Virus record (IMG/VR): IMGVR_UViG_2802429225_000009 | Coordinates: 1-29,934 of that record | Source of the DNA: a virus | Lineage: Duplodnaviria > Heunggongvirae > Uroviricota > Caudoviricetes | DNA: 29,934 bases | Direction: 5' to 3' (one strand) | Notes under the pieces: model-generated | What the model saw: only the letters and a program-made list of their open reading frames with translations | Databases searched by the model: none | Told to the model about the DNA's origin: nothing | Shown here: positions 1 to 9,857 of the stretch, one piece after another | How the letters are laid out: every line of letters starts with the position of its first letter | Position numbering within the stretch: the first letter of the stretch is position 1 | Program-made: the position numbers and the translations under genes

Positions 1-990
1 TTATGTGGATGAAATGTGGATGCCTCCTTTTAACGGATTAAGTGAAATTGCATCCTGGAGGAAATCAGGAGCGAGGTGCGCATAGGTCATAGTTTGCTGG
101 ATCGTGGCGTGCCCCATAATTCGCTGGAGCGTAAGTATATTTCCTCCATTAATCATAAAGTGAGCAGCAAAGGTATGGCGTAGAACATGTACAGCCTGTC
201 CTTTTGGTAGGTCTGGCTTAACACTGCGAAGCACCTTGCGATATTCCTCATAATTGACGTCAAATAAAAGGCCGGATTTCTTTGTTTTGATCTCACTAAC
301 AACTTCATCAGAGACAGGAATAATTCGAACTTTTCCGTTTTTAGTTTTGTTAAACGTCACGCGATTATTGATGATGTGTTCCGCGCGCAGATTTTTCGCT
401 TCTCCCCATCTCGCACCAGTACTGAGACAAAGTAGCGTAATCCGCCGGGCATCACCGCTTACTGCATCCAGTAATTTGGCGATTTCTTCCGTGGTGAGAT
501 ACGTCATTTCGGGTGATTTTCGTTTCAAAGAGGGGAGGGCGCGGAGCGGATTTTCTCCGTGAAATTCCCCGGCATTTGCCAGGAGTGTAAACATTCCTCC
601 GAGATCCGACTCATCACGCCGAACAGTAGACTCTTTTACTCCCAAAGATAAACGGGAGCTTCGATAAGCAGCCATGAAACGAGCATTAATCTGGCTAACC
701 CTTGGATCATTCATTTCTTTGATGATTTTTTTCAACCTGGTTAGAACGCCGTTAGCATATGGCTTATTGCGTCCACCCAATTCCCACCATAACGGAAGCA
801 GATCTGAGAGATGACGTTGCTCTGTTGGCTTTTCAAGCCATTCCTTATCGTGCATGTGGCTGAGAACATAACGCTCAAAGGCCACTGCATCTGCCTTTTT
901 CTTAAAAATCCGCTGAATCCGACGTCCACTTCGGCCACGCGGTCTAACATCCACTTTATACCGTCCACCATCGAGTGCTTTAATTGCCAT
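1..990 (-). CDS. int: Tyrosine recombinase, P2-type prophage integrase
   Basis: Minus-strand ORF whose translation from the second Met (MAIKALDGGRYKVDVRP...) matches the remembered N-terminus of P2 Int (MAIKKLDDGRYEVDIRP...). C-terminal HxxR...Y catalytic region (VLRHTFAAHF...MGHATIQQTMTYAHL). GGAGG lies 8 nt upstream of the ATG at 990. Track ORF 1..1023 starts 11 codons earlier without a good RBS. Stop codon is at 1-3. Confidence 0.9.
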   Translation of the reverse strand: MAIKALDGGRYKVDVRPRGRSGRRIQRIFKKKADAVAFERYVLSHMHDKEWLEKPTEQRHLSDLLPLWWELGGRNKPYANGVLTRLKKIIKEMNDPRVSQINARFMAAYRSSRLSLGVKESTVRRDESDLGGMFTLLANAGEFHGENPLRALPSLKRKSPEMTYLTTEEIAKLLDAVSGDARRITLLCLSTGARWGEAKNLRAEHIINNRVTFNKTKNGKVRIIPVSDEVVSEIKTKKSGLLFDVNYEEYRKVLRSVKPDLPKGQAVHVLRHTFAAHFMINGGNILTLQRIMGHATIQQTMTYAHLAPDFLQDAISLNPLKGGIHISST

Positions 991-1056
991 TGGCAAGCCC
1001 TCCGGTGAAACGAGGAAAGACATTTCCAGTTTGTAAAACGTAAGAATAATAAAGGG

Positions 1057-1359
1057 TTAACCAATTTTCCTTTCGGATGGGGGTAAATCCGTTGGCTCTT
1101 GCCCATAGTGTGCGAGAGCCGGAGCTATCTGCCCGGATTCAGGCGCAATTTTCCCAGTCATAAACCACAAGGCATATTTTTCGAACCGCGGGCAATTTAA
1201 GATTTTCATCATTACATCCCCTTTGGGTATGGATTCGCCAGTCTCATAACGCCATAGCGCGTTATGCGGAATACCTATTAACTCCGCAGCCTCATTGCGA
1301 CTTGTAATGCGCTCACTTTCACGCATTAGTTTTAGTTTTTCACCAATCTCCAAAATCAT
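1057..1359 (-). CDS. C: P2 C-type immunity repressor (HTH)
   Basis: Translation from the internal Met (MILEIGEKLKLMRESE...PKGDVMMKILNCPRFEKYALWFMTGKIAPESGQIAPALAHYGQEP...) is near-collinear with remembered P2 C (…TPPTDVMMNILQTPQFTKYTLWFMTNQIAPESGQIAPALAHFGQNE…). GGAG lies about 9 nt upstream of the ATG at 1359. Same strand and immediately upstream of int, as in the P2 Pc operon. Confidence 0.85.
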   Translation of the reverse strand: MILEIGEKLKLMRESERITSRNEAAELIGIPHNALWRYETGESIPKGDVMMKILNCPRFEKYALWFMTGKIAPESGQIAPALAHYGQEPTDLPPSERKIG

Positions 1360-1453
1360 ATTGCATTCTCCAAATATGTAGTGCATTATGCAAACAATGA
1401 GTTGAACTATGGGGTAAATATCTCACCTATACCCCAAACAGGGAGATTATCAC
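1360..1453. promoter_or_regulatory. Divergent Pc/Pe-type lysogeny switch region between C and cox
   Basis: 94-bp AT-rich gap between divergent start codons. TGCATT repeated at 1363-1368 and 1382-1387. 7-bp inverted repeat TGGGGTA / TACCCCA at 1410-1416 and 1430-1436, just upstream of the cox RBS. Role assigned by analogy to the P2 switch; promoter elements not mapped. Confidence 0.4.
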
Positions 1454-1780
1454 ATGAATGAAGAACTATTGAGGGCATTGTTTAAGATCCCAGACCCCAT
1501 CACCGTCGATGAATTTGCCCGCCGCACGGGCAAGACCGAATCAGCCGTAAGAAAGTTGGTGGAACGTCGGCTCATCCCTCTGGCCACTGAGCGTGAAGTT
1601 TTAGGCGAGGAAGGAAGTTCACGCCGCCTTCTCATCCTATGGAACGAGTGGCTCGAAATGGTCTATGACGCAACGAAACAGCTTCCTCCTGAGCGTAAAG
1701 ATTGGCGCAACCACTGGCTTAATAAAGCCAAGAAGCTGGCGGAAGATTTGGGATTAGGCTTCCTTAATTTTGCTGCATGA
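1454..1780 (+). CDS. cox: Cox/Apl-like excisionase and switch regulator (small HTH protein)
   Basis: First gene of the rightward early operon, divergent from C, 108 aa. GGGAG lies 8 nt upstream. HTH-like stretch (VDEFARRTGKTESAVRKLVER). Call rests on position and size more than on sequence identity. Confidence 0.65.
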   Translation: MNEELLRALFKIPDPITVDEFARRTGKTESAVRKLVERRLIPLATEREVLGEEGSSRRLLILWNEWLEMVYDATKQLPPERKDWRNHWLNKAKKLAEDLGLGFLNFAA

Positions 1781-1798
1781 GATGCAGGGAGTTTTGAT

Positions 1799-2140
1799 AT
1801 GAAACAGCAACGTAATTCACGCTTTCGTAATGGTGCTGAACGCCACGCTAACCGTTTCGCTACCAGTGCATCACGCAGCAACATCCGCTACAGCCTGAGT
1901 GATACACACGCAACGCCGGATGGCTACCCAGTAAAACAAATCGGCGAGCATGCCTGGCTGATTGAGAAAGCTGGAATCGTGGTTCACAAATGCCCACGCA
2001 ATCCGTTTACCGGAAACCGCATTTTTGCATTGAGCTGCGGCGACAATCAGTTCGGGCAGGATTTCACATTATACGAAGCACTACGCACGGTTGATCGTCT
2101 GCTTCGCGGGCAAAGTTTTATTAAACAGGCTGATTTATAA
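1799..2140 (+). CDS. Hypothetical early protein
   Basis: 113-aa ORF with GGGAG 9 nt upstream of the ATG, in the early operon. No recognisable motif. Confidence 0.5.
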   Translation: MKQQRNSRFRNGAERHANRFATSASRSNIRYSLSDTHATPDGYPVKQIGEHAWLIEKAGIVVHKCPRNPFTGNRIFALSCGDNQFGQDFTLYEALRTVDRLLRGQSFIKQADL

Positions 2141-2150
2141 CAGGTGCTTT

Positions 2151-2429
2151 ATGACCAAAGAGCATGCACAAGGTGTATTTATCCGTTTTATTGATTTTCG
2201 CGGTGAACTGTTATTACGCGCATCGGCTATTGATGCTGTAGTCCCGGCAGCAAAAGATGTGGCTACTTACCTTTATCTGAACGGCACGCGATTGTTTGTG
2301 GAACTTCCGTACCAGACCGTGCGCGAAATTATTAGCGAAGCTGAAAAAGCACGTCAGGTTAATGGCGATGAACCCTATATCGAAATTATCTGCATGGATT
2401 CAGAAGCTGAAATTCAAAAGGCAGATTAA
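2151..2429 (+). CDS. Hypothetical early protein
   Basis: Start re-set to ATG 2151 (MTKEHAQGVF...), which has AGGTG upstream. The track start at 2091 would overlap the previous gene. 92 aa. Confidence 0.45.
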   Translation: MTKEHAQGVFIRFIDFRGELLLRASAIDAVVPAAKDVATYLYLNGTRLFVELPYQTVREIISEAEKARQVNGDEPYIEIICMDSEAEIQKAD

Positions 2430-2440
2430 AGGGCGTTGCG

Positions 2441-2683
2441 ATGGATAAAGAATATAAAACTCTCGTCAATAAAGCACTTGAGCGCTTTCATTTTCGCATA
2501 AGCGCATCAGGCACTCATGCTGAACTCGCAGCCCGAGAGTCATTGACCAGGGCCATCAAGAGTATATACGACACAGCTTTTTACATTGACGACCCGGACG
2601 CGCTCGACGAGCTTTCCATACTCGTCTGCGCCGCAGAAAACGGGGACCATATTGAGCCATATAAACTGGGGAATATTGCATGA
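2441..2683 (+). CDS. Hypothetical early protein
   Basis: 80-aa ORF with AAGGG upstream, tightly packed in the early operon. Confidence 0.45.
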   Translation: MDKEYKTLVNKALERFHFRISASGTHAELAARESLTRAIKSIYDTAFYIDDPDALDELSILVCAAENGDHIEPYKLGNIA

Positions 2684-2793
2684 GTATATTTATCTCATGG
2701 CTTGTTCTGATTATTTCGGTGGCCTGCGCCATTGGGATTATGCGAATTATTCATTCAGTAAAAAAGATTGAACGCTTTTTCACTGACAAATAA
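2680..2793 (+). CDS. Possible small hydrophobic peptide (37 aa, one TM helix)
   Basis: ATG overlaps the stop of the upstream gene (ATGA). Translation MSIFISWLVLIISVACAIGIMRIIHSVKKIERFFTDK. Below the track's length cutoff; coupling and hydrophobicity are the only support. Confidence 0.25.
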   Translation: MSIFISWLVLIISVACAIGIMRIIHSVKKIERFFTDK

Positions 2794-2885
2794 CAGATTA
2801 AACAAAACACCAGATTAAACCCGAAAACCTGAAAACTATCCGCATTCGCGGAGGTATTCGCACACGTAAATAACGGAGATATAAA

Positions 2886-3302
2886 ATGAACGCAAAAGAA
2901 AAAAATATTATCAATACATTAAAAATAGTGTCAGCAGAGCAAGACAAGCTGTCCAGGGCAGCCCAGAAAGATAATCAACATATGGCAGCGCTTTACGCAC
3001 TGACCATCGCAATAGCCACCTCTGAAGCAGCCAAAGTTATTGAGGAACAGAGCAAAGAAATCGACACTCTTAAAACACAGTCAACAGTTGCAACCATGAA
3101 TCCGTCCAGCATTGGACGCTGCATTTATATTCTTGGTTCAGCAATGATGCTGCGATACACCATTATTGCCGAACTGCACGGCAAATACCTGATAACGCCT
3201 TACCACACAAAAGAGTCAGAGCTTCTGACAAATCTCCGCCTGATAGAACGCTCTCAAGCTGTATTCATTGATGACGCGCAACGTGCCGTATTTAACGCAT
3301 AG
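2886..3302 (+). CDS. Hypothetical protein in an AT-rich moron
   Basis: 138-aa ORF with GGAGA RBS. The gene is visibly more AT-rich than its surroundings and follows an AT-rich gap with short direct repeats. N-terminal half looks coiled-coil-like. Confidence 0.5.
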   Translation: MNAKEKNIINTLKIVSAEQDKLSRAAQKDNQHMAALYALTIAIATSEAAKVIEEQSKEIDTLKTQSTVATMNPSSIGRCIYILGSAMMLRYTIIAELHGKYLITPYHTKESELLTNLRLIERSQAVFIDDAQRAVFNA

Positions 3303-3325
3303 GGTTACCGGACAAAGGGGGCGCA

Positions 3326-3529
3326 ATGGCAATTAAGCATTTTCCCGTCGTTCGCTTTACCTCCAGAGGGCGCGAATACGAGGTCGACGAACGCCTGATT
3401 ACCACTATCGACAAACATCGTTCGGAAAAGGATGCACACCACATCTACCTCACTGACGGCACTTATTTCTGCGCCACCAACGTGGCGCGGGTGAATCTTA
3501 TCCGACAGGTACAGGAGCATCGTAAATGA
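3326..3529 (+). CDS. Hypothetical protein, first gene of a coupled four-gene operon
   Basis: 67 aa, GGGGG RBS. Its stop overlaps the next start (ATGA at 3526-3529). Confidence 0.5.
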   Translation: MAIKHFPVVRFTSRGREYEVDERLITTIDKHRSEKDAHHIYLTDGTYFCATNVARVNLIRQVQEHRK

Positions 3530-3744
3530 GCAGAAGGCGAATCACACGCAGGCATCGCCGCACACACATGAATTCCTTACCGACGCTGAAAGAACTCATT
3601 CAGCACGAGATCGCTGATTTCTGCGCAACGCTGGGGTCGCCAGGCGAACCGGAAACGCCAGAAGCGATGCAGCGCGAACTCATGATGCGCATCGATAACG
3701 TTTTTGACTTTTTCCTGAATAACAAAAGAGAGCAATCAACATGA
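3526..3744 (+). CDS. Hypothetical protein with a strongly basic N-terminus
   Basis: 72 aa (MSRRRITRRHRRTH...). ATGA overlaps at both ends (3526 and 3741). True start could be the internal Met (MNSLPTLKEL...). Confidence 0.4.
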   Translation: MSRRRITRRHRRTHMNSLPTLKELIQHEIADFCATLGSPGEPETPEAMQRELMMRIDNVFDFFLNNKREQST

Positions 3745-3944
3745 ACAAAAAGACCTGGTTTCGCGCATACATGTGGGCGCTGGTATGCGTCCTCGTCTCT
3801 CTCATTCTGTATGCAGGACTACTCCCCCGAATGATTTCATCAGACAGCTCCTTCCTGGTATTGCTGGGCATTTTCATTGCCATGCTGTACCCGGCAGGCG
3901 TTGTTCGCCTTTTCAGTAAGTACATCAAGGAAATCAAACAATGA
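3741..3944 (+). CDS. Small integral membrane protein (two predicted TM helices)
   Basis: 67 aa with two hydrophobic stretches (WALVCVLVSLILYAGLL; FLVLLGIFIAMLYPAGVV). Coupled by ATGA overlaps to both neighbours. Sits immediately upstream of the SPFH gene, the position an NfeD-type partner usually occupies. Confidence 0.55.
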   Translation: MNKKTWFRAYMWALVCVLVSLILYAGLLPRMISSDSSFLVLLGIFIAMLYPAGVVRLFSKYIKEIKQ

Positions 3945-4771
3945 AGAAATTCAAACCCTTTCAGATTCTCCCGCTTTTTGCCGCCATCCTGCTGGTTGGC
4001 TGCGATCGCGTTGAGCCAGGTAATGTGGGCATCAAAGTCAACAAGCTGGGCGACGACAAAGGCGTTGGCGAAGTGGTTGGCGTTGGCCGCTACTGGACTG
4101 GCTGGAATACCGAGGTTTACATCTTCCCGACCTTCAAACAAATGAAGACCTACGATGAGCCGTTCAGCTTCCAGATGAGTGACGGCACAACCATCGGCTA
4201 TCACATCGGTGTGGCCTACAAGGTTGATCCATCCAAAGTTACCACTGTGTTTCAGACCTACCGCAAAGGCGTGGATGACATTACCGACACCGACCTGCGC
4301 CAGAAGATCGCCGACGCACTCAACCGACTGGCCAGCAAAATGACCACCGATAAATTTATCGACGGTGGCAAGTCTGAACTGCTGGATTCAGCACTTAAAG
4401 ACATTCAGGCAGAAATGACACCTATCGGCATTCAGGTAATGAGCCTCTCTTATGTGGGTAAGCCGGAATACCCGCCAACCGTTATCGACAGCATTAATGC
4501 CAAAGTCACGGCAAACCAGAAAACTCTGCAACGCGAGCAGGAAGTTAAGCAACGCGAAGCAGAAGCCAACATGCTGCGCGCAGAAGCTGCCGGACAGGCT
4601 GATGCCATTCGAACAAAAGCCCAGGCTGAAGCCGACGCCATTCGTTTACGCGGTGAAGCTCTGCGCCAGAATCCCGGCGTTATGGAGCTGGAAGCGATTA
4701 ACAAATGGAACGGCACGCTACCGCAATACATGACCAGTAACACCGCTGTTCCGTTTGTTCCGGTGAAGTAA
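3941..4771 (+). CDS. SPFH/Band-7 (HflK/HflC-stomatin-like) lipoprotein
   Basis: 276 aa. N-terminal signal peptide with lipobox (AAILLVGC). Band-7 core followed by a C-terminal A/E/Q-rich coiled coil (QREQEVKQREAEANMLRAEAAGQADAIRTKAQAEADAIRLRGEA) typical of HflK/HflC-type proteins. Confidence 0.75.
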   Translation: MKKFKPFQILPLFAAILLVGCDRVEPGNVGIKVNKLGDDKGVGEVVGVGRYWTGWNTEVYIFPTFKQMKTYDEPFSFQMSDGTTIGYHIGVAYKVDPSKVTTVFQTYRKGVDDITDTDLRQKIADALNRLASKMTTDKFIDGGKSELLDSALKDIQAEMTPIGIQVMSLSYVGKPEYPPTVIDSINAKVTANQKTLQREQEVKQREAEANMLRAEAAGQADAIRTKAQAEADAIRLRGEALRQNPGVMELEAINKWNGTLPQYMTSNTAVPFVPVK

Positions 4772-4838
4772 TTCAACCCGGCCAGTGAAACCGCTGGCCG
4801 AAAATATAACGAATAAACAAAAAGCCAGAGGACAGAAC

Positions 4839-4985: not shown

Positions 4986-5019
4986 TCCGTGTCACTGTCA
5001 GAAGCTTAACCCATGTATA

Positions 5020-5146
5020 CACAAAAAAACCGCTTGCCATGCCGCAATCAGTCAGGTTACATTTCCGCTGCACCTCATAAAACGGGTGCCGGGTTTCGCA
5101 GCCTGCTGACAACCAAAGCGCACAACCGCGCCAGCGGTTTTTTTGT
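5020..5146. repeat. Perfect 15-bp inverted repeat pair flanking about 97 bp
   Basis: CACAAAAAAACCGCT at 5020-5034 and its exact reverse complement AGCGGTTTTTTTGTG at 5132-5146. The interior holds further short hairpins. No convincing ORF. Confidence 0.6.
5124..5143 (+). terminator. Candidate intrinsic terminator for the upstream early/moron operon
   Basis: ACCGC-GCCA-GCGGT hairpin (5-bp GC-rich stem, 4-nt loop) followed directly by TTTTTTT at 5137-5143. Stem is short, so confidence is modest. It coincides with the right arm of the 15-bp inverted repeat. Confidence 0.35.
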
Positions 5147-5323
5147 GCGTACTGTATTGCCACGTCTTTTTCGCACACGAATTATGGCGGGGCGTACGGG
5201 GCCGACTTCGGTCGGGCCGGGTTCTTTGGTTGCCGGTACTGCGAACCCCGTACGTCTCGCCACCCACAGTTTCGCAGCTCTGGATGGTGAGTTTTCAAAA
5301 CTTACAACCAAAGAGGCCACTCC

Positions 5324-5554
5324 ATGGCAAACCGCAAACAGCTCCGCGCTATCGCGGAGCGTCGTCACATCCAGACTGAAATCAACCGCAGACTTTCCCG
5401 CGCATTCCGCGTCGCTAAAATCATGCACATCAATATGCTGCATGAGCGTAGCTGCGAACTTTCAAACCTCTACTCATCCGCTGTTTTCAGTTATCTGGCG
5501 GATGATCTGCGCGAGCTTCAGCAGCTCATCCAGCAGCAAAACAAACTCCATTAA
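5324..5554 (+). CDS. Hypothetical protein
   Basis: 76-aa ORF with AAAGAGG 7 nt upstream. Predicted helical and basic. Lies upstream of A. Confidence 0.5.
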   Translation: MANRKQLRAIAERRHIQTEINRRLSRAFRVAKIMHINMLHERSCELSNLYSSAVFSYLADDLRELQQLIQQQNKLH

Positions 5555-5626
5555 TTCCTGTTCCGGGCCTTTCCTGCACCTTGCGGCGGGAGGCCTTCGC
5601 ACATCTGTAACAAGAGGATTGCCGCA

Positions 5627-5992
5627 ATGATTCTCGCCAACGACTTTCTTGAATACCTGCTCAACACAGAGCGTGATCTTGCCGTTCGCGTACGTGAACG
5701 TTATGACATGTACCTGAAATCCCTGCCTGTACCGCAGCTCGCTGACGGAAAGATTGTTATTGATGGTCGCTACATGATTGACAGCCACGAGGGAAATTAC
5801 AGGCTTTACCGCATTGAAGGTGGCACCCCGTCCGTTATTGGCATTTACCAGCGCCCATCCTCTGCAATCGTCGATGTGATTGCCGACAGCATCCGCATCA
5901 CACATCGCCATGCCGACACAGAAGACACCGTGCTGGAAATTCAGCGGCTGGCTGCCGTCTGCCGCGACACCCTGAATGGCATGACGAAGTAA
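5627..5992 (+). CDS. Hypothetical protein immediately upstream of A
   Basis: 121-aa ORF with AGAGGA RBS, tightly packed against the A start. Confidence 0.5.
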   Translation: MILANDFLEYLLNTERDLAVRVRERYDMYLKSLPVPQLADGKIVIDGRYMIDSHEGNYRLYRIEGGTPSVIGIYQRPSSAIVDVIADSIRITHRHADTEDTVLEIQRLAAVCRDTLNGMTK

Positions 5993-5998
5993 ATCACT

Positions 5999-8821
5999 AT
6001 GACGACAGAGTTCATCAGGGACTGGCAACAACCGCGCCACGCAGTAGGGCGTGAAGGAACGGGGATCCCCGCACCTGAATCCGCGCTTTCCTCCTGGCTG
6101 GATGCCTACCGGGCAGAGAACGAGCGCCGCCAGGAAATGGCTGATGCGGCGTTCTCCGCCACGCCGCTGGGCAACCTGATTAATAAAAGCCTGGACGCAC
6201 AGGAAAAACAGGACAAAACCATCACACTGGCAGGAGACGCCAGAAAACAGGCACGCGGCGCGGTGGATGAAGCCATGGCCTCGCTCCGCCTGCTGCCGTC
6301 CTATCTGCGCGATCCGCTTATTCGCCACCTCTCCTTCCTGCGCAAAAAACAGGAAGCTGATCGCCGGAAAGGCAAAAAGAGCTGGCAGGCTGAACGCTAC
6401 GCGCGCGGAACCCTGCGCAAAATATTCGAACGTCTGGATCGCACCGACCACCGCTGGCTGACACCGGGTTATCGCTCCCTTGCCGGACGCGAACACCTGG
6501 ATGATTTGCTTTACCTGCCGCAGCTCAACAAACACCAGATACAGACGCTGGCCGCCATGACGGCGGCGATGTTCAGCAGCACCTTCGAAAAACTCTGCGA
6601 TGGCTTTGGCGCGACCGATGGCGAGCTGACCATGGATGTAACCCTGAAGGCGTATCAGATGCTGGCCCGCATGGCGTTACACCTGCACGCCATGCCTCCA
6701 CATTATGACGCACTGACAACAGACAAAGACCGGAGGAACGAACCGGACACGGAGCTGCTGCCGGGCGCAATCCTTCGCCTGACCTGTGCAGAATGGTGGA
6801 AACGCAAACTGTGGCTGTTACGTTGCGAGTGGCGGGAAGAACAACTCCGCGCCGCCTGTCTGGTTTCCAGAAAAACATCTCCCTATCTGAGCCAGGACGC
6901 GTTAAGCGAGTTTCGCGCACAGCGCGAGAAAACACGCGATTTCCTGAAAAGTTTCATGCTGGAAAACGAAGACGGGTTCACGATTGATCTCGAGACAGTG
7001 TATTACGCGGGAGTAAGTAACCCGGTTCACCGTAAGGCAGAAATGATGGCCACCATGAAGGGGCTGGAGCTTCTGGCCGAAGCCCGTGGCGACAAAGCGG
7101 TGTTTCTGACTGTCACCTGCCCGTCAAAATACCACGCCACAACAGAGAACGGTCATCCGAATCCCAAATGGAACGGGGCCACCATGCGCGACTCCAGCGA
7201 TTACCTGGTTAACACGTTTTTTGCGGCGGTCCGCAAGAAACTGAACCGCGACGGCCTGCGCTGGTATGGCATCCGCACGGTGGAGCCTCACCATGACGGC
7301 ACCGTGCACTGGCATATGATGGTCTTTGCTCATCCGGAAGAAATCGACACCATTGTGTCCCACACCCGCGATATTGCCATTCAGGAAGATCGTCACGAGC
7401 TGGGTGATGATATTACCCCACGCTTTAAGGCGGAGCACGTCGACGGCTCAAAAGGCACACCGACCAGCTACATCGCCACCTACATCGGGAAAAACCTGGA
7501 CAGCCGTGCCGTGGATGGCATCGACCCGAAAACGGGCAAGCCACGCGTTGACCACGAAACAGGTAAATCAATGGCCGAGAGCGTGGAGCGCGCCATCGGC
7601 TGGGCGCGCCTTCACCGGGTCCGCCAGTTCCAGTTCTTTGGCATTCCCTCCCGTCAGGTGTGGCGTGAACTCCGCCGCCTTGCCAGCCAGATGGCACGCA
7701 ACCCGGAAGGCCCGCAACGGCTGAAGGATGACGCAATGGATGCGGTTCTTGCTGCCGCTGATGCCGGGTGTTTTGCCACCTACATTGAAAAACAGGGCGG
7801 CGTACTTGTTCCACGCAAAGACTACCTGATTCGCACCGCCTACGACCTCGCCGATGAGCTGAACGATTACGGCGAACAGAGTGTACAGATTTACGGGATC
7901 TGGTCGCCACTCATCGGGGAATCCTCCCGTGTGTGCACGCATCAGGATAACTGGAAGCTGGTAAGACGCAAACCGGAAGCGAAAGACAGCGCCCGCGAAA
8001 ATGGTTTTGACCTTCAGGGCGGCCCTGCCGCCCCTTGGACTCGTGGCAATAACTGTCCCCGTGTACAGGAAACGGACAACAACGGGACAGAACAGCCGGA
8101 AGAACGGCCAGCACCGTGGCCGCAGCTTCCTGACGGCGTTGAAGTAAATGAATGGATGCGCTCACTGAAACGGCACGAACGCCGGGCGCTGATGCGTTCG
8201 CTTCGTGACAAACAGGCAAAAAACAGCAGCGATGAAATGCAGAACTGGACACAGAGCCGCAAACAGCCACAGCCTTTGCCTGATAACCACGAGTTACTCG
8301 CTAAAGAATGGCGGGAGTCTGCTGAATCTCTCGGCCTGCATATCGGTGAACAGCAGATGCAGCACCTGTTACGGGGCGGCAGCCTGTACGTTGACGGCAG
8401 CATCATTGCACCGCAGGGATTTGAAATTGTACGCAAACCGGATACCCGCCCGGACAGCCGAATCACGCAGCTCTGGCAGCGCCTGAGCCGCAATCACGGC
8501 GTAAGCAGCACGGAGATCCGTCATAACCCGGTCGCCAGCTATCTGGAACAGCTGGGGGCATCAGACCCCGAAGCCGCCGCACGCCTGGCATCCACACTTC
8601 AGCAAGACCAGAACACCATGAAAACACCCGTTACCGTGCTTTCTGACATGCTGCGCGCCATCCGTGACGCAGAGCACGCACAGAGAATCAGTGAAACCAC
8701 TGAACGCGCCCGCCGCAAAGCAAACCTGCTGCGGGGTGGCCTGACCAGTGGAAACAAAAAACAGACAAAAACGGGATTTACAAATCCCGTAAATGAGCAA
8801 AAAACGCGCCGCGATATATGA
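5999..8821 (+). CDS. A: Rolling-circle replication initiator (HUH endonuclease), P2 gpA family
   Basis: 940-aa ORF. HUH-type motif (HHDGTVHWHMMVFAHPEE) and other blocks remembered from P2/186 A proteins. Position after the early genes matches P2. The C-terminal ~180 aa is longer than I recall for P2 A and overlaps the first palindromic site, so the true stop could be earlier if there is a sequencing frameshift. Confidence 0.85.
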   Translation: MTTEFIRDWQQPRHAVGREGTGIPAPESALSSWLDAYRAENERRQEMADAAFSATPLGNLINKSLDAQEKQDKTITLAGDARKQARGAVDEAMASLRLLPSYLRDPLIRHLSFLRKKQEADRRKGKKSWQAERYARGTLRKIFERLDRTDHRWLTPGYRSLAGREHLDDLLYLPQLNKHQIQTLAAMTAAMFSSTFEKLCDGFGATDGELTMDVTLKAYQMLARMALHLHAMPPHYDALTTDKDRRNEPDTELLPGAILRLTCAEWWKRKLWLLRCEWREEQLRAACLVSRKTSPYLSQDALSEFRAQREKTRDFLKSFMLENEDGFTIDLETVYYAGVSNPVHRKAEMMATMKGLELLAEARGDKAVFLTVTCPSKYHATTENGHPNPKWNGATMRDSSDYLVNTFFAAVRKKLNRDGLRWYGIRTVEPHHDGTVHWHMMVFAHPEEIDTIVSHTRDIAIQEDRHELGDDITPRFKAEHVDGSKGTPTSYIATYIGKNLDSRAVDGIDPKTGKPRVDHETGKSMAESVERAIGWARLHRVRQFQFFGIPSRQVWRELRRLASQMARNPEGPQRLKDDAMDAVLAAADAGCFATYIEKQGGVLVPRKDYLIRTAYDLADELNDYGEQSVQIYGIWSPLIGESSRVCTHQDNWKLVRRKPEAKDSARENGFDLQGGPAAPWTRGNNCPRVQETDNNGTEQPEERPAPWPQLPDGVEVNEWMRSLKRHERRALMRSLRDKQAKNSSDEMQNWTQSRKQPQPLPDNHELLAKEWRESAESLGLHIGEQQMQHLLRGGSLYVDGSIIAPQGFEIVRKPDTRPDSRITQLWQRLSRNHGVSSTEIRHNPVASYLEQLGASDPEAAARLASTLQQDQNTMKTPVTVLSDMLRAIRDAEHAQRISETTERARRKANLLRGGLTSGNKKQTKTGFTNPVNEQKTRRDI

Positions 8822-8868
8822 AGCGCGCACAAAACAGGCGAAAGCGGGATTTCAGAATCCCGTAAACG
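8771..8868. promoter_or_regulatory. Twin palindromic sites upstream of parM (candidate parC-like centromere/operator)
   Basis: CGGGATTT-ACA-AATCCCG at 8772-8789 (perfect 8-bp arms) and GGGATTTCAGAATCCC at 8846-8861 (7-bp arms). Both are followed by GTAAA, lie about 75 bp apart, and the second is 37 bp upstream of the parM start. Candidate -10 TAATTA at 8871-8876. Confidence 0.4.
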
Positions 8869-8897
8869 GTTAATTAACCAACATAAGGAAAATCGAC

Positions 8898-9857
8898 ATG
8901 AAAATTTGTATCGACGACGGCTCCACCAACATCAAGCTGGCATGGACTGAGAACGGCGAACGCCGCAACGCCATCAGCCCGAACAGCTTCAAGTCGGAAT
9001 GGTCTGCGCCGTTCGGTGGCACGCAGCCCGCAAACTACATGCTTGATGGCGTGCGCTATGGTTTTGATCCGGTCAGCGATCGCTTTGTCCAGACGACCGA
9101 CACGCAATACCAGTACAGCGATGTGAATGTCATTGCCATTCATCACGCGCTGGTCAAATCAGGTATCACACCACAGGAAGTGGATGTGGTTGTCACCCTG
9201 CCACTGAGCGAGTATTTCGACACAAACGCCCAGCCGGATATGACCAACATCAACCGCAAAAAAGCGAACGTTATGCGCCCGGTGGAGTATCAGAACAGTG
9301 AGGCATTCACTATCCGCAACGTACGGGTTATGCCTGAATCCATTCCGGCTGGCTTTAAGGCACTGGCTGACATGAGTCAGTTTGAATCCCTGCTGATTGT
9401 GGATTTGGGCGGAACCACGCTGGATGTGGCAAAGGTTCAGGGACAACTGGCAGGTATCAGCCAGGTGTTTTGCGATCCACACGTAGGCGTTTCTCTGATG
9501 GCCGATGCCGTGCTGTCGGTGATGGCCACCAACGGTATGCGTACCAGTCACCACATCGCTAATACCATTATCGAACATCGCCACGATGAAGCCTGGCTGC
9601 GCCAGCACATCCACAATAACGCACATTACGCCAGCCTGATGGCAGTTATTCGTGAAAAGGAGGAAACACTGAAACAACGCGTGATCCGCGCGCTGGCGGG
9701 TTTTTCGGGTTACGGGCGGGTGATGGTTGTAGGTGGAGGAGCGGAGATTGTGGCACCCGCTATCCGCGAAGCCTGCGGAGTTAATGCGACTTTCATCGCG
9801 GACGGGGTGCCACAGTTTGCTCTGGTTAATGGGCTGTACGCAATGGACAAGGAGTAA
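8898..9857 (+). CDS. parM: ParM/StbA actin-like segregation ATPase
   Basis: 319 aa. N-terminus MKICIDDGSTNIKLAW...ISPNSFKSEW...QYSDVNVIAIHHALVKSGI tracks remembered R1 ParM (MLVFIDDGSTNIKLQW...ISPNSFKREW...QYSDVNVVAVHHALLTSGL). Actin-fold phosphate motifs (DDGST; DLGGTTLD). AAGGA RBS. Confidence 0.85.
   Translation: MKICIDDGSTNIKLAWTENGERRNAISPNSFKSEWSAPFGGTQPANYMLDGVRYGFDPVSDRFVQTTDTQYQYSDVNVIAIHHALVKSGITPQEVDVVVTLPLSEYFDTNAQPDMTNINRKKANVMRPVEYQNSEAFTIRNVRVMPESIPAGFKALADMSQFESLLIVDLGGTTLDVAKVQGQLAGISQVFCDPHVGVSLMADAVLSVMATNGMRTSHHIANTIIEHRHDEAWLRQHIHNNAHYASLMAVIREKEETLKQRVIRALAGFSGYGRVMVVGGGAEIVAPAIREACGVNATFIADGVPQFALVNGLYAMDKE

Follow-up and report, generated by a model that had tools for sequence, protein, structure and literature searches.

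Proteins of the SPFH type, including HflK/C, prohibitins, stomatins and flotillins, build cages that fence off patches of membrane. To our knowledge, the roles of bacterial SPFH cages other than HflK/C are mostly unknown. Among SPFH proteins carried by phages, our literature search found experimental data only for PM0222 (Pmorf0222), a prophage-encoded HflK/C-like protein of 25-35 kDa from Pasteurella multocida, which was found in outer-membrane vesicles, signals through the Toll-like receptors TLR1/2 and attenuates virulence when deleted (PMC9872710). Here we describe two adjacent open reading frames (ORFs), ORF3 and ORF4, in a stretch of viral DNA of 29,934 nucleotides (nt) (IMG/VR record IMGVR_UViG_2802429225_000009; the whole stretch is referred to as the window), which is a P88-type prophage of the P2-like group (genus Xuanwuvirus, family Peduoviridae). 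ORF4 encodes an SPFH protein with a lipoprotein signal peptide, and ORF3 encodes a small membrane protein with two hydrophobic helices. The reading that we favor, with a probability of roughly 0.5, is that the two genes form a mobile cassette for a split SPFH scaffold, which would condition the host membrane early in lytic development.

The pair lies in a segment that is optional among collinear relatives. In a blastn comparison with the P88-like prophage of Escherichia coli LR-62-2 (locus L167), which is collinear with the window and carries no SPFH gene, window positions 1-3518, 3601-3734 and 5012-9000 were aligned, and the unmatched segment between the last two blocks (Table 1) contains ORF3, ORF4, a hairpin and an ORF of 48 amino acids (aa). 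The initial annotation had proposed that four genes, ORF1 to ORF4, were inserted together in the early region; insertion holds for ORF3 and ORF4, whereas ORF1 and ORF2 are resident. The block of homology with P88 stops at position 4800, and the 48-aa ORF beyond it was found in only three P2-like IMG/VR loci and, at another distance, in phiP27. Among E. coli genomes, 1340 carry this gpA type, compared with 145 that carry the P2-type ORF3 and signal-peptide segment, which indicates that the pair is accessory in this phage group. Neither gene is present in the P2 and 186 early regions, as the initial annotation had suggested. Presence and absence among collinear genomes, with boundaries at gene ends, is the pattern of an accessory, moron-like cassette. 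Signals of its own for expression from the prophage were not seen: no sigma70-like site was called on the plus strand between 1050 and 5034, and the hairpin (minimum free energy -17.9 kcal/mol, z-score -5.5), which was considered as a terminator, has no U-tract after it on either strand and received no call in the terminator scan. ORF1 to ORF4 are located in the rightward early region, with the repressor/cox-type switch to the left and gpA to the right, and the lack of a promoter-like site in the scanned interval suggests that they are part of a longer early transcript and form no operon of their own.

The identity of ORF4 as an SPFH protein is clear from both profile and fold. The protein matched Pfam Band_7 (PF01145) at 107.9 bits (cut-off 23.6, E 7.6e-31), and its AlphaFold2 (AF2) model, with a predicted local distance difference test (pLDDT) of 72, comprises a beta-rich N-terminal part (strands within residues 20-95), helices at 97-162, strands at 164-176 and a helix of 65 residues at 179-243. 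This long helix is followed by a conserved C-terminal KWNGxLP motif, of which W256 and G258 are invariant across distant homologues. A Foldseek search with the model returned HflC/HflK, erlin, prohibitin, stomatin and flotillin with a probability of 1.00, QmcA-YbbJ was also among the top matches, and the major vault protein was matched as well; E values ranged from 1e-13 (HflC, HflK) to 8e-8 over the HflC, HflK, erlin, prohibitin, stomatin, flotillin and QmcA-YbbJ chains. At the sequence level the matches to HflK, HflC and prohibitin-2 are weak, and the long-helix region of ORF4 aligns with the helical wall region of these three proteins. The SPFH protein with a lipobox and an HflK/C-like tail that was initially annotated is therefore borne out, and its nearest solved relatives include HflC and HflK, but ORF4 itself is neither of them: it scored 22.7 bits against TIGR01933 hflK (cut-off 159.4) and 24.8 bits against TIGR01932 hflC (cut-off 134.4). 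In addition, no second SPFH paralogue that would make a K/C pair is present at the locus, where the neighbor of ORF4 is the 67-aa two-helix protein.

The N-terminus of ORF4 reads MKKFKPFQILPLFAAILLVGC followed by DRVEPG, with a canonical lipobox and the lipidated residue predicted to be Cys21; the signal peptide, MKKFK-PFQILPLFAAILLV-GC, fits the lipobox pattern [LVI][ASTVI][GAS]C. Among 115 close homologues, the lipobox cysteine is kept in 104, with Asp at the +2 position in 99 and Glu in 5, and it is replaced by Tyr, Trp or Phe in 10, where an uncleaved signal anchor would be expected. Asp at +2 classically keeps E. coli lipoproteins in the inner membrane by letting them avoid the Lol pathway. 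The repeated loss of the cysteine suggests that lipidation is dispensable and a membrane anchor is not, and these variants, together with Asp or Glu at +2, point to ORF4 being kept at the periplasmic face of the inner membrane. The predicted arrangement of ORF4 is thus an inner-membrane anchor and an SPFH domain in the periplasm. The proteins that lack the cysteine (P0046, P0048, P0057, P0058, P0113 and P0116-P0120) are otherwise intact; they belong to Klebsiella-type and SSU5-like phage-plasmid clades, and one of their clusters occurs on 175 contigs.

ORF3 has two hydrophobic helices with Lys/Arg-rich ends, and its charge distribution is the basis on which an N-in/C-in topology is predicted. 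Conservation is highest in the inter-helix turn, which has the motif LLPxM(I/V)S(S/A)xxS (consensus (L/A)(L/V)PxM(I/V)S(A/S)xxS), and its sole Pfam match is RseC_MucC, below threshold (14.6 bits compared with 24.4). A word-indexed protein search with ORF3 gave only close E. coli relatives, and the distant partners were found with a custom hidden Markov model (HMM). In P88, RCS47, Pastis, Cyrano and phiP27, a two-helix relative of 62-78 aa stops only a few bases from the SPFH start or overlaps it, and in RCS47, Pastis and phiP27 this homologue is missing from the deposited annotation (Table 1). Similarly, an ORF3 homologue was positioned 150-210 nt upstream of the SPFH start in 83 of the 86 loci that were fetched first, mainly IMG/VR contigs. 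In a scan of one genome per species, for which a narrower alignment of 8 SPFH sequences was used because the 39 diverse SPFH homologues were too divergent, the ORF3 HMM placed the partner immediately 5' of the SPFH gene in about 55 of 78 species genomes, from Enterobacterales, some 45 Dyella/Rhodanobacteraceae genomes, and metagenome-assembled genomes of Dependentiae and Methylumidiphilus.

The two genes have also been joined into one. About 15% of the top 150 cluster representatives among the relatives of ORF4 carry an N-terminal extension of 60-110 aa; the ORF3 HMM recognizes the extensions of fused homologues (E 4e-8 to 3e-3), and after them comes an internal segment that resembles a signal peptide and has a lipobox. 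One such fused partner-SPFH protein, P0001, is 96% identical to ORF4, and its model, built from an alignment without ORF3 rows, shows three N-terminal helices and then the SPFH body (pLDDT 68, poor at the start of the SPFH domain). Conserved adjacency and repeated fusion are strong evidence that ORF3 and ORF4 work together in fixed proportion. Of the stoichiometric co-expression that was initially proposed for four genes, this leaves a plausible coupling of ORF3 and ORF4, and the membrane pair described for the last two genes, including the 67-aa two-helix protein in third place, agrees with their adjacency in five phage backgrounds and with the fusions in distant homologues. By its genomic context, the pair is the conserved unit.

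Two rearrangements of the pair were observed besides. In the cluster representative P0129, the two-helix module stands at the C-terminus of the SPFH lipoprotein and not at its N-terminus; as C-terminal joining would invert the topology of the module, this may be a read-through or gene-calling artefact. In Shigella flexneri (L088, 5021-5995) and in one E. coli locus (L089), about 770 bp, apparently IS1, separate the partner and SPFH genes and alter the C-terminus of the partner protein.

The family is distributed far beyond P2-like prophages. Relatives of ORF4 were detected by tblastn in 379 of 50,697 phage records, mostly of virulent lineages (N4-like, rV5/PVP-SE1-like, FelixO1-like, LUZ24/PaP3-like, phiCbK-like and jumbo phages), and an exhaustive search of 50%-identity cluster representatives gave 2863 relatives at E <= 0.001. 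Of 5426 complete E. coli genomes, 1631 (about 30%) have DNA that matches the region, with 392 of the matching places on plasmids. The SPFH gene occurs in the lambdoid phage phiP27 and many Stx2 phages, upstream of xis/int, in the P2-like P88, in RCS47 and other P1-like phages, in the phage-plasmids Cyrano and SSU5, and in Pastis, a virulent N4-like phage of Erwinia; the products of P88 gp11/gp12 share 98.5-99% protein identity with ORF3/ORF4. When the DNA was compared with the phiP27, P1-like, N4-like and SSU5-like copies in windows of 60 columns, identity was 23-64% before the window with the Cys codon (4001), rose to 68-75% in it and then stayed mostly at 60-98% almost as far as the stop (about 4760). 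This step at the lipobox suggests that ORF3 and the signal peptide diverge together, with the mature domain being exchanged or conserved as a block. A copy with 100% protein identity to ORF4 was encountered in the species-representative scan on the chromosome of Salmonella enterica strain s1 (CP191473.1, L087), and this prophage type is hence not confined to E. coli.

In Dyella/Rhodanobacteraceae, at least 23 genomes carry the pair at one and the same chromosomal site, flanked by a BlaR1/M56 gene and nrdAB. At this site (L101-L160; for example, L121 5779-6813), a small ORF precedes the BlaR1/M56 peptidase gene, and hemerythrin/nrdAB lie on the other side; no phage genes were seen near the pair in the two loci inspected. 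The fixed chromosomal locus indicates that the family is cellular and non-antiviral in origin and was later picked up by phages. Some Dyella genomes have a second copy of the pair elsewhere, roughly 40% identical.

Table 1. Positions of the ORF3-ORF4 cassette, its parts and its surroundings (window coordinates unless a locus is named)
Feature	Position	Strand	Match or remark
Inserted segment	3735..5011	+	Unmatched in L167 (blastn vs L167)
ORF3, 67 aa, two-transmembrane-helix partner	3741..3944	+	phrog_1130 'membrane protein', E 1.3e-22
ORF4, 276 aa, SPFH/Band-7 lipoprotein (lipidation predicted)	3941..4771	+	phrog_200 'lipoprotein', E 7.8e-112
Lipoprotein signal peptide of ORF4, lipobox LVGC	3941..4003	+	Cys21 codon 4001-4003, Asp at +2
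SPFH (Band_7) domain of ORF4, residues 23-209	4007..4567	+	Profile positions 2-176/176
Long Ala/Glu/Gln-rich helix of ORF4, residues 179-243	4475..4669	+	DSSP on AF2 model
Hairpin, 9-bp stem	4779..4800	+	8 nt past ORF4 stop codon; right end of P88-shared block
48-aa ORF, optional, not in P88	4839..4985	+	phrog_3871 (function-unknown family), E 1.3e-31
ORF3 homologue, unannotated, RCS47	L004 2730-2966		Directly upstream of SPFH gene
ORF3 homologue, unannotated, Pastis	L006 2759-2962		Directly upstream of SPFH gene
ORF3 homologue, unannotated, phiP27	L003 2759-2947		Directly upstream of SPFH gene
ORF1, 67 aa, resident early-operon gene of P88-like phages	3326..3529	+	phrog_3459; outside cassette
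ORF2, 72 aa, Ead/Ea22-like, truncated or recombinant	3526..3744	+	phrog_4144; outside cassette
Integrase	1-1023	-	
Repressor-type regulator	1057-1386	-	
Repressor/cox-type switch	1057-1780		Left of rightward early region
IsrK	5070-5144	as 205-aa ORF	Rfam match, 65.9 bits
C4 antisense RNA	5180-5267	as 205-aa ORF	Rfam match, 87.1 bits
gpA replication endonuclease gene	5999-8821		End of rightward early operon
ParM-like partition gene	8898-9857		phrog_691; directly after gpA

In the reading that we favor, ORF4 would be exported, lipid-modified at Cys21 and, owing to Asp at +2, retained at the inner membrane on its periplasmic side. Its SPFH domains and long helix may there drive assembly into a ring or cage of the kind built by HflK/C, prohibitin, stomatin and QmcA. 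Classical SPFH proteins have transmembrane helices of their own, arranged in a ring, and a lipid-anchored one has none; ORF3, made in fixed proportion through translational coupling, would provide this ring, so that the two together could fence off a patch of inner membrane. We infer the oligomeric cage and the retention from the fold and the lipobox; as for timing, the location among early genes and the many virulent carriers suggest that the pair, transcribed from the early promoter, would act at the start of lytic development. Its output is speculative: the host inner membrane may be conditioned such that membrane proteins are held or shielded and the membrane stays intact and energized. 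The pair would then be an auxiliary function of host takeover, and neither a lysogeny switch nor a defence system.

Several points weigh against this reading. Asp at +2 is followed by Arg at +3, a pair whose retention strength is not confirmed, and distant homologues have Thr, Ser or Gly at +2. The single-chain models are only moderate (pLDDT 72 for ORF4 and 68 for the fusion), and the model of P0001 is silent on how the helices pack against the SPFH domain. The sequence by itself is also compatible with expression in lysogens. Mature ORF4 is 76-95% identical across unrelated phages, which would suit the binding of one specific conserved host target, for example FtsH, just as well as a general role at the membrane. 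Finally, the literature search found no experiments on any member of the family and only annotation-level mentions of phage SPFH genes, and a paper on a Schitoviridae phage calls the reason for a phage SPFH lipoprotein unclear (PMC13239085).

A bolder version, which we hold tentatively and with the odds clearly against it, is that the two-piece viral SPFH cage assembles at the periplasmic side of the inner membrane within minutes of infection and captures a specific conserved host machine, most likely FtsH or a DNA-entry or transport complex, and thereby reprograms membrane proteolysis or blocks further infection. If true, this would be the first functionally defined viral SPFH scaffold, and a widespread takeover device of temperate as well as virulent phages from many families, borrowed from a cellular pair that is still present in Dyella.

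T4 Imm and P22 SieA are inner-membrane exclusion proteins, and ORF3 and ORF4 might similarly form an inner-membrane scaffold that blocks the DNA entry of later phages. A small inner-membrane pair from an early operon, accessory and horizontally mobile among phages of the same hosts, would fit such a role, and an annotation paper guesses at a function in adsorption or DNA entry. No known exclusion family was matched in Pfam, PHROGs or PADLOC, however, and exclusion genes usually evolve fast and are specific to a phage group, in contrast to the conservation of mature ORF4 across unrelated phages; the vertically inherited Dyella copy also argues for a cellular function. Superinfection exclusion is plausible, then, but it is without specific support and we consider it unlikely.

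The initial annotation had further suggested that ORF4 might bias the decision between lysis and lysogeny in the manner of HflK/C. Such a mimic would, with ORF3, bind the periplasmic domain of FtsH or join HflK/C cages and in this way alter proteolysis by FtsH. Among the best matches of ORF4 by sequence and fold are HflK and HflC in FtsH complexes, the predicted periplasmic orientation is the same, the conserved mature domain fits a conserved host target, and the genes lie in the early operon beside the genetic switch. The scores far under both family cut-offs and the single SPFH gene in place of a K/C pair speak against a mimic. In addition, the carriers are mostly virulent and make no lysogeny decision, the pair is kept as a chromosomal locus in Dyella, P2-type switches use C/Cox, and the window yielded no FtsH substrate resembling CII. 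The claim of a lysis-lysogeny bias is weakened by the predominance of virulent carriers and by the stable Dyella pair, and a role limited to that decision is unlikely; a mimic that acts on FtsH is a possibility, given the agreement in topology and fold and the unusual conservation of the mature domain, but a rather improbable one.

Many abortive-infection effectors are membrane proteins, and an accessory prophage pair with a membrane component could in principle kill or arrest the lysogen upon infection by another phage. Beyond this general likeness nothing specific was found. In PADLOC-DB v2.0.0, ORF1, ORF2 and ORF4 had no match and ORF3 matched only PDC-M18B, over 21 residues at E 0.0078; the pair lies in a repressed early operon, outside the known P2 defence loci (the old/tin region); it is widespread in virulent phages; and no literature linking SPFH proteins to anti-phage defence was found. 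The abortive-infection module that had been considered is thus weakened, given a negligible match and a position that predicts lytic rather than lysogenic expression, and we regard it as very unlikely.

Triacylated lipoproteins are TLR2 ligands, and ORF4, if expressed from the prophage and displayed at the surface or in vesicles, might alter the interaction between the bacterium and its host. PM0222, a possible homologue of ORF4, is a precedent for such lysogenic conversion. Asp at +2 and the variants without the cysteine argue for residence in the inner membrane, the operon position predicts repression in the lysogen, and the family is common in virulent phages, which together make this explanation scarcely probable.

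A complex of all four proteins was suggested by the gene arrangement, which was exactly as initially annotated: four co-directional ORFs on the plus strand with ATGA stop-start overlaps at all three junctions (3526, 3741 and 3941), each start preceded at 6-10 nt by a purine-rich Shine-Dalgarno-like stretch. Overlaps of 4 nt are common in Peduoviridae early operons, however: the window has one more at 2680-2683, a run of five occurs in P88 and several are found in P2 and 186, and for this reason the overlaps mark no four-gene unit. ORF1 matches phrog_3459, a family without known function, over its full length (E 7.9e-45) and had no match in Pfam, NCBIfam, PADLOC or the PDB, where a sequence search gave chance-level results only; no functional assignment was obtained from PADLOC, NCBIfam or Pfam for ORF1, ORF2 or ORF3. 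ORF1 is also found in the cassette-less relative L167, and its distance to ORF4 varies among loci (-615, -953, -974 and -997 nt). The longer spacings (-953 to -997 nt) are those of most relatives with the cassette, where ORF1 and ORF3 flank a winged-helix gene and a full-length ead gene; the window lacks the former and the 5' part of the latter, both of which most relatives have. Consistent with this, ORF2 matches phrog_4144 at positions 34-99 of 99, and its residues 19-67 align at 69% identity with residues 52-100 of P88 gp10 (104 aa, annotated as ead/Ea22-like), with residues 1-18 being unrelated to gp10; it is a product of truncation or recombination.

ORF1 and the Ead-like gene thus occur in relatives both with and without the insert, and the two are ordinary neighbors in the early operon, unrelated to the cassette. 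The search for the same four-gene architecture did recover the -615 spacing in 12 other fetched loci, but ORF1 and ORF3 are separated by one or two further genes in most relatives with the cassette, and in lambdoid, P1-like, SSU5-like and N4-like phages the pair occurs without ORF1 and ORF2. With the pair alone conserved, a functional four-gene operon does not hold up, and the four-protein complex, largely refuted by comparative genomics, appears the least probable of the explanations weighed here. A spanin-like role (a periplasmic coiled coil plus a lipoprotein) was rejected on the early operon, the SPFH fold and the predicted inner-membrane location of both parts, and a Cor/Llp-type blocker of outer-membrane receptors was rejected on Asp at +2 and the Cys-loss variants.

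To the right of the cassette, a 205-aa ORF at 5013-5630 equals the 'ash family protein' of relatives in size and position. Matches to IsrK and C4 antisense RNA lie within it (Table 1), with sigma70-like sites at 5034-5063, just upstream of IsrK, and at 5157-5185, just upstream of the C4 antisense RNA; the end of IsrK is a hairpin with a T run at 5124-5139. The region resembles the RNA immunity or antirepressor control regions of P1/P4 type, here placed within a P2-like early region, and its candidate product is a protein, an RNA or both. Farther on, a ParM-like gene is present in this integrated P2-like prophage, and RefSeq relatives also annotate an adjoining 'partitioning/stability' partner gene.

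Genes of the ORF3 and ORF4 families are already in the databases, often mislabelled as 'serine protease'. Our literature search did not find a description of the obligatory two-helix partner, the partner-SPFH fusions, the Cys-loss variants or the Dyella counterpart, nor any reading of the pair as an SPFH system in two pieces, lipid-anchored and facing the periplasm. For genome annotation, 'putative serine protease' is a misnomer, and the gene of 60-80 aa upstream should be called. As a compact, lipid-anchored version in two pieces, small and accessible to easy genetics, ORF3 and ORF4 could reveal what a periplasm-facing SPFH scaffold does and why unrelated phages pay for one.

Compared with the systems described so far, P88 gp11/gp12 and PHROG families 1130 and 200 are the same genes, annotated in hundreds of phage genomes and known from annotation only ('membrane protein', 'lipoprotein', 'putative serine protease'). 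PM0222 is likewise a prophage-borne SPFH protein of about the size of ORF4, set beside it here by description as a possible relative; its location in outer-membrane vesicles and its role in virulence differ from what Asp at +2 and the operon position predict for ORF4. T4 Imm and P22 SieA are, as predicted for ORF3 and ORF4, small inner-membrane proteins of accessory phage genes that are expressed early, but there is no sequence or family relation, and only ORF4 brings an SPFH component. The HflK/HflC-FtsH complex of E. coli (PDB 7vhp, 7vhq, 7wi3 and 9cz2) resembles ORF4 more closely: HflK and HflC have an SPFH domain with a long helix, are anchored in the inner membrane with their bulk in the periplasm, as predicted for ORF4, and are among its best fold and profile matches. 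Identity is only 16-18%, however, with scores far below the family cut-offs; the anchor is an N-terminal helix in HflK/HflC and predicted to be a lipid in ORF4; and a K/C heterodimer stands against a single SPFH gene with a 67-aa two-helix partner, for which a link to FtsH is drawn by likeness only. In SPFH-NfeD operons (stomatin/QmcA-YbbJ, PDB 8z5g; YqiK-YqiJ; FloT-YuaF), as in the cassette, an SPFH gene is accompanied by a small co-transcribed multi-helix membrane partner, natural fusions exist, and QmcA is a fold match of ORF4. Unlike the partners in those operons, ORF3 has neither the NfeD C-terminal OB-fold domain nor a Pfam family, and it precedes the SPFH gene; moreover, the SPFH part is predicted to face the periplasm in ORF4, whereas it faces the cytoplasm in QmcA-type pairs.

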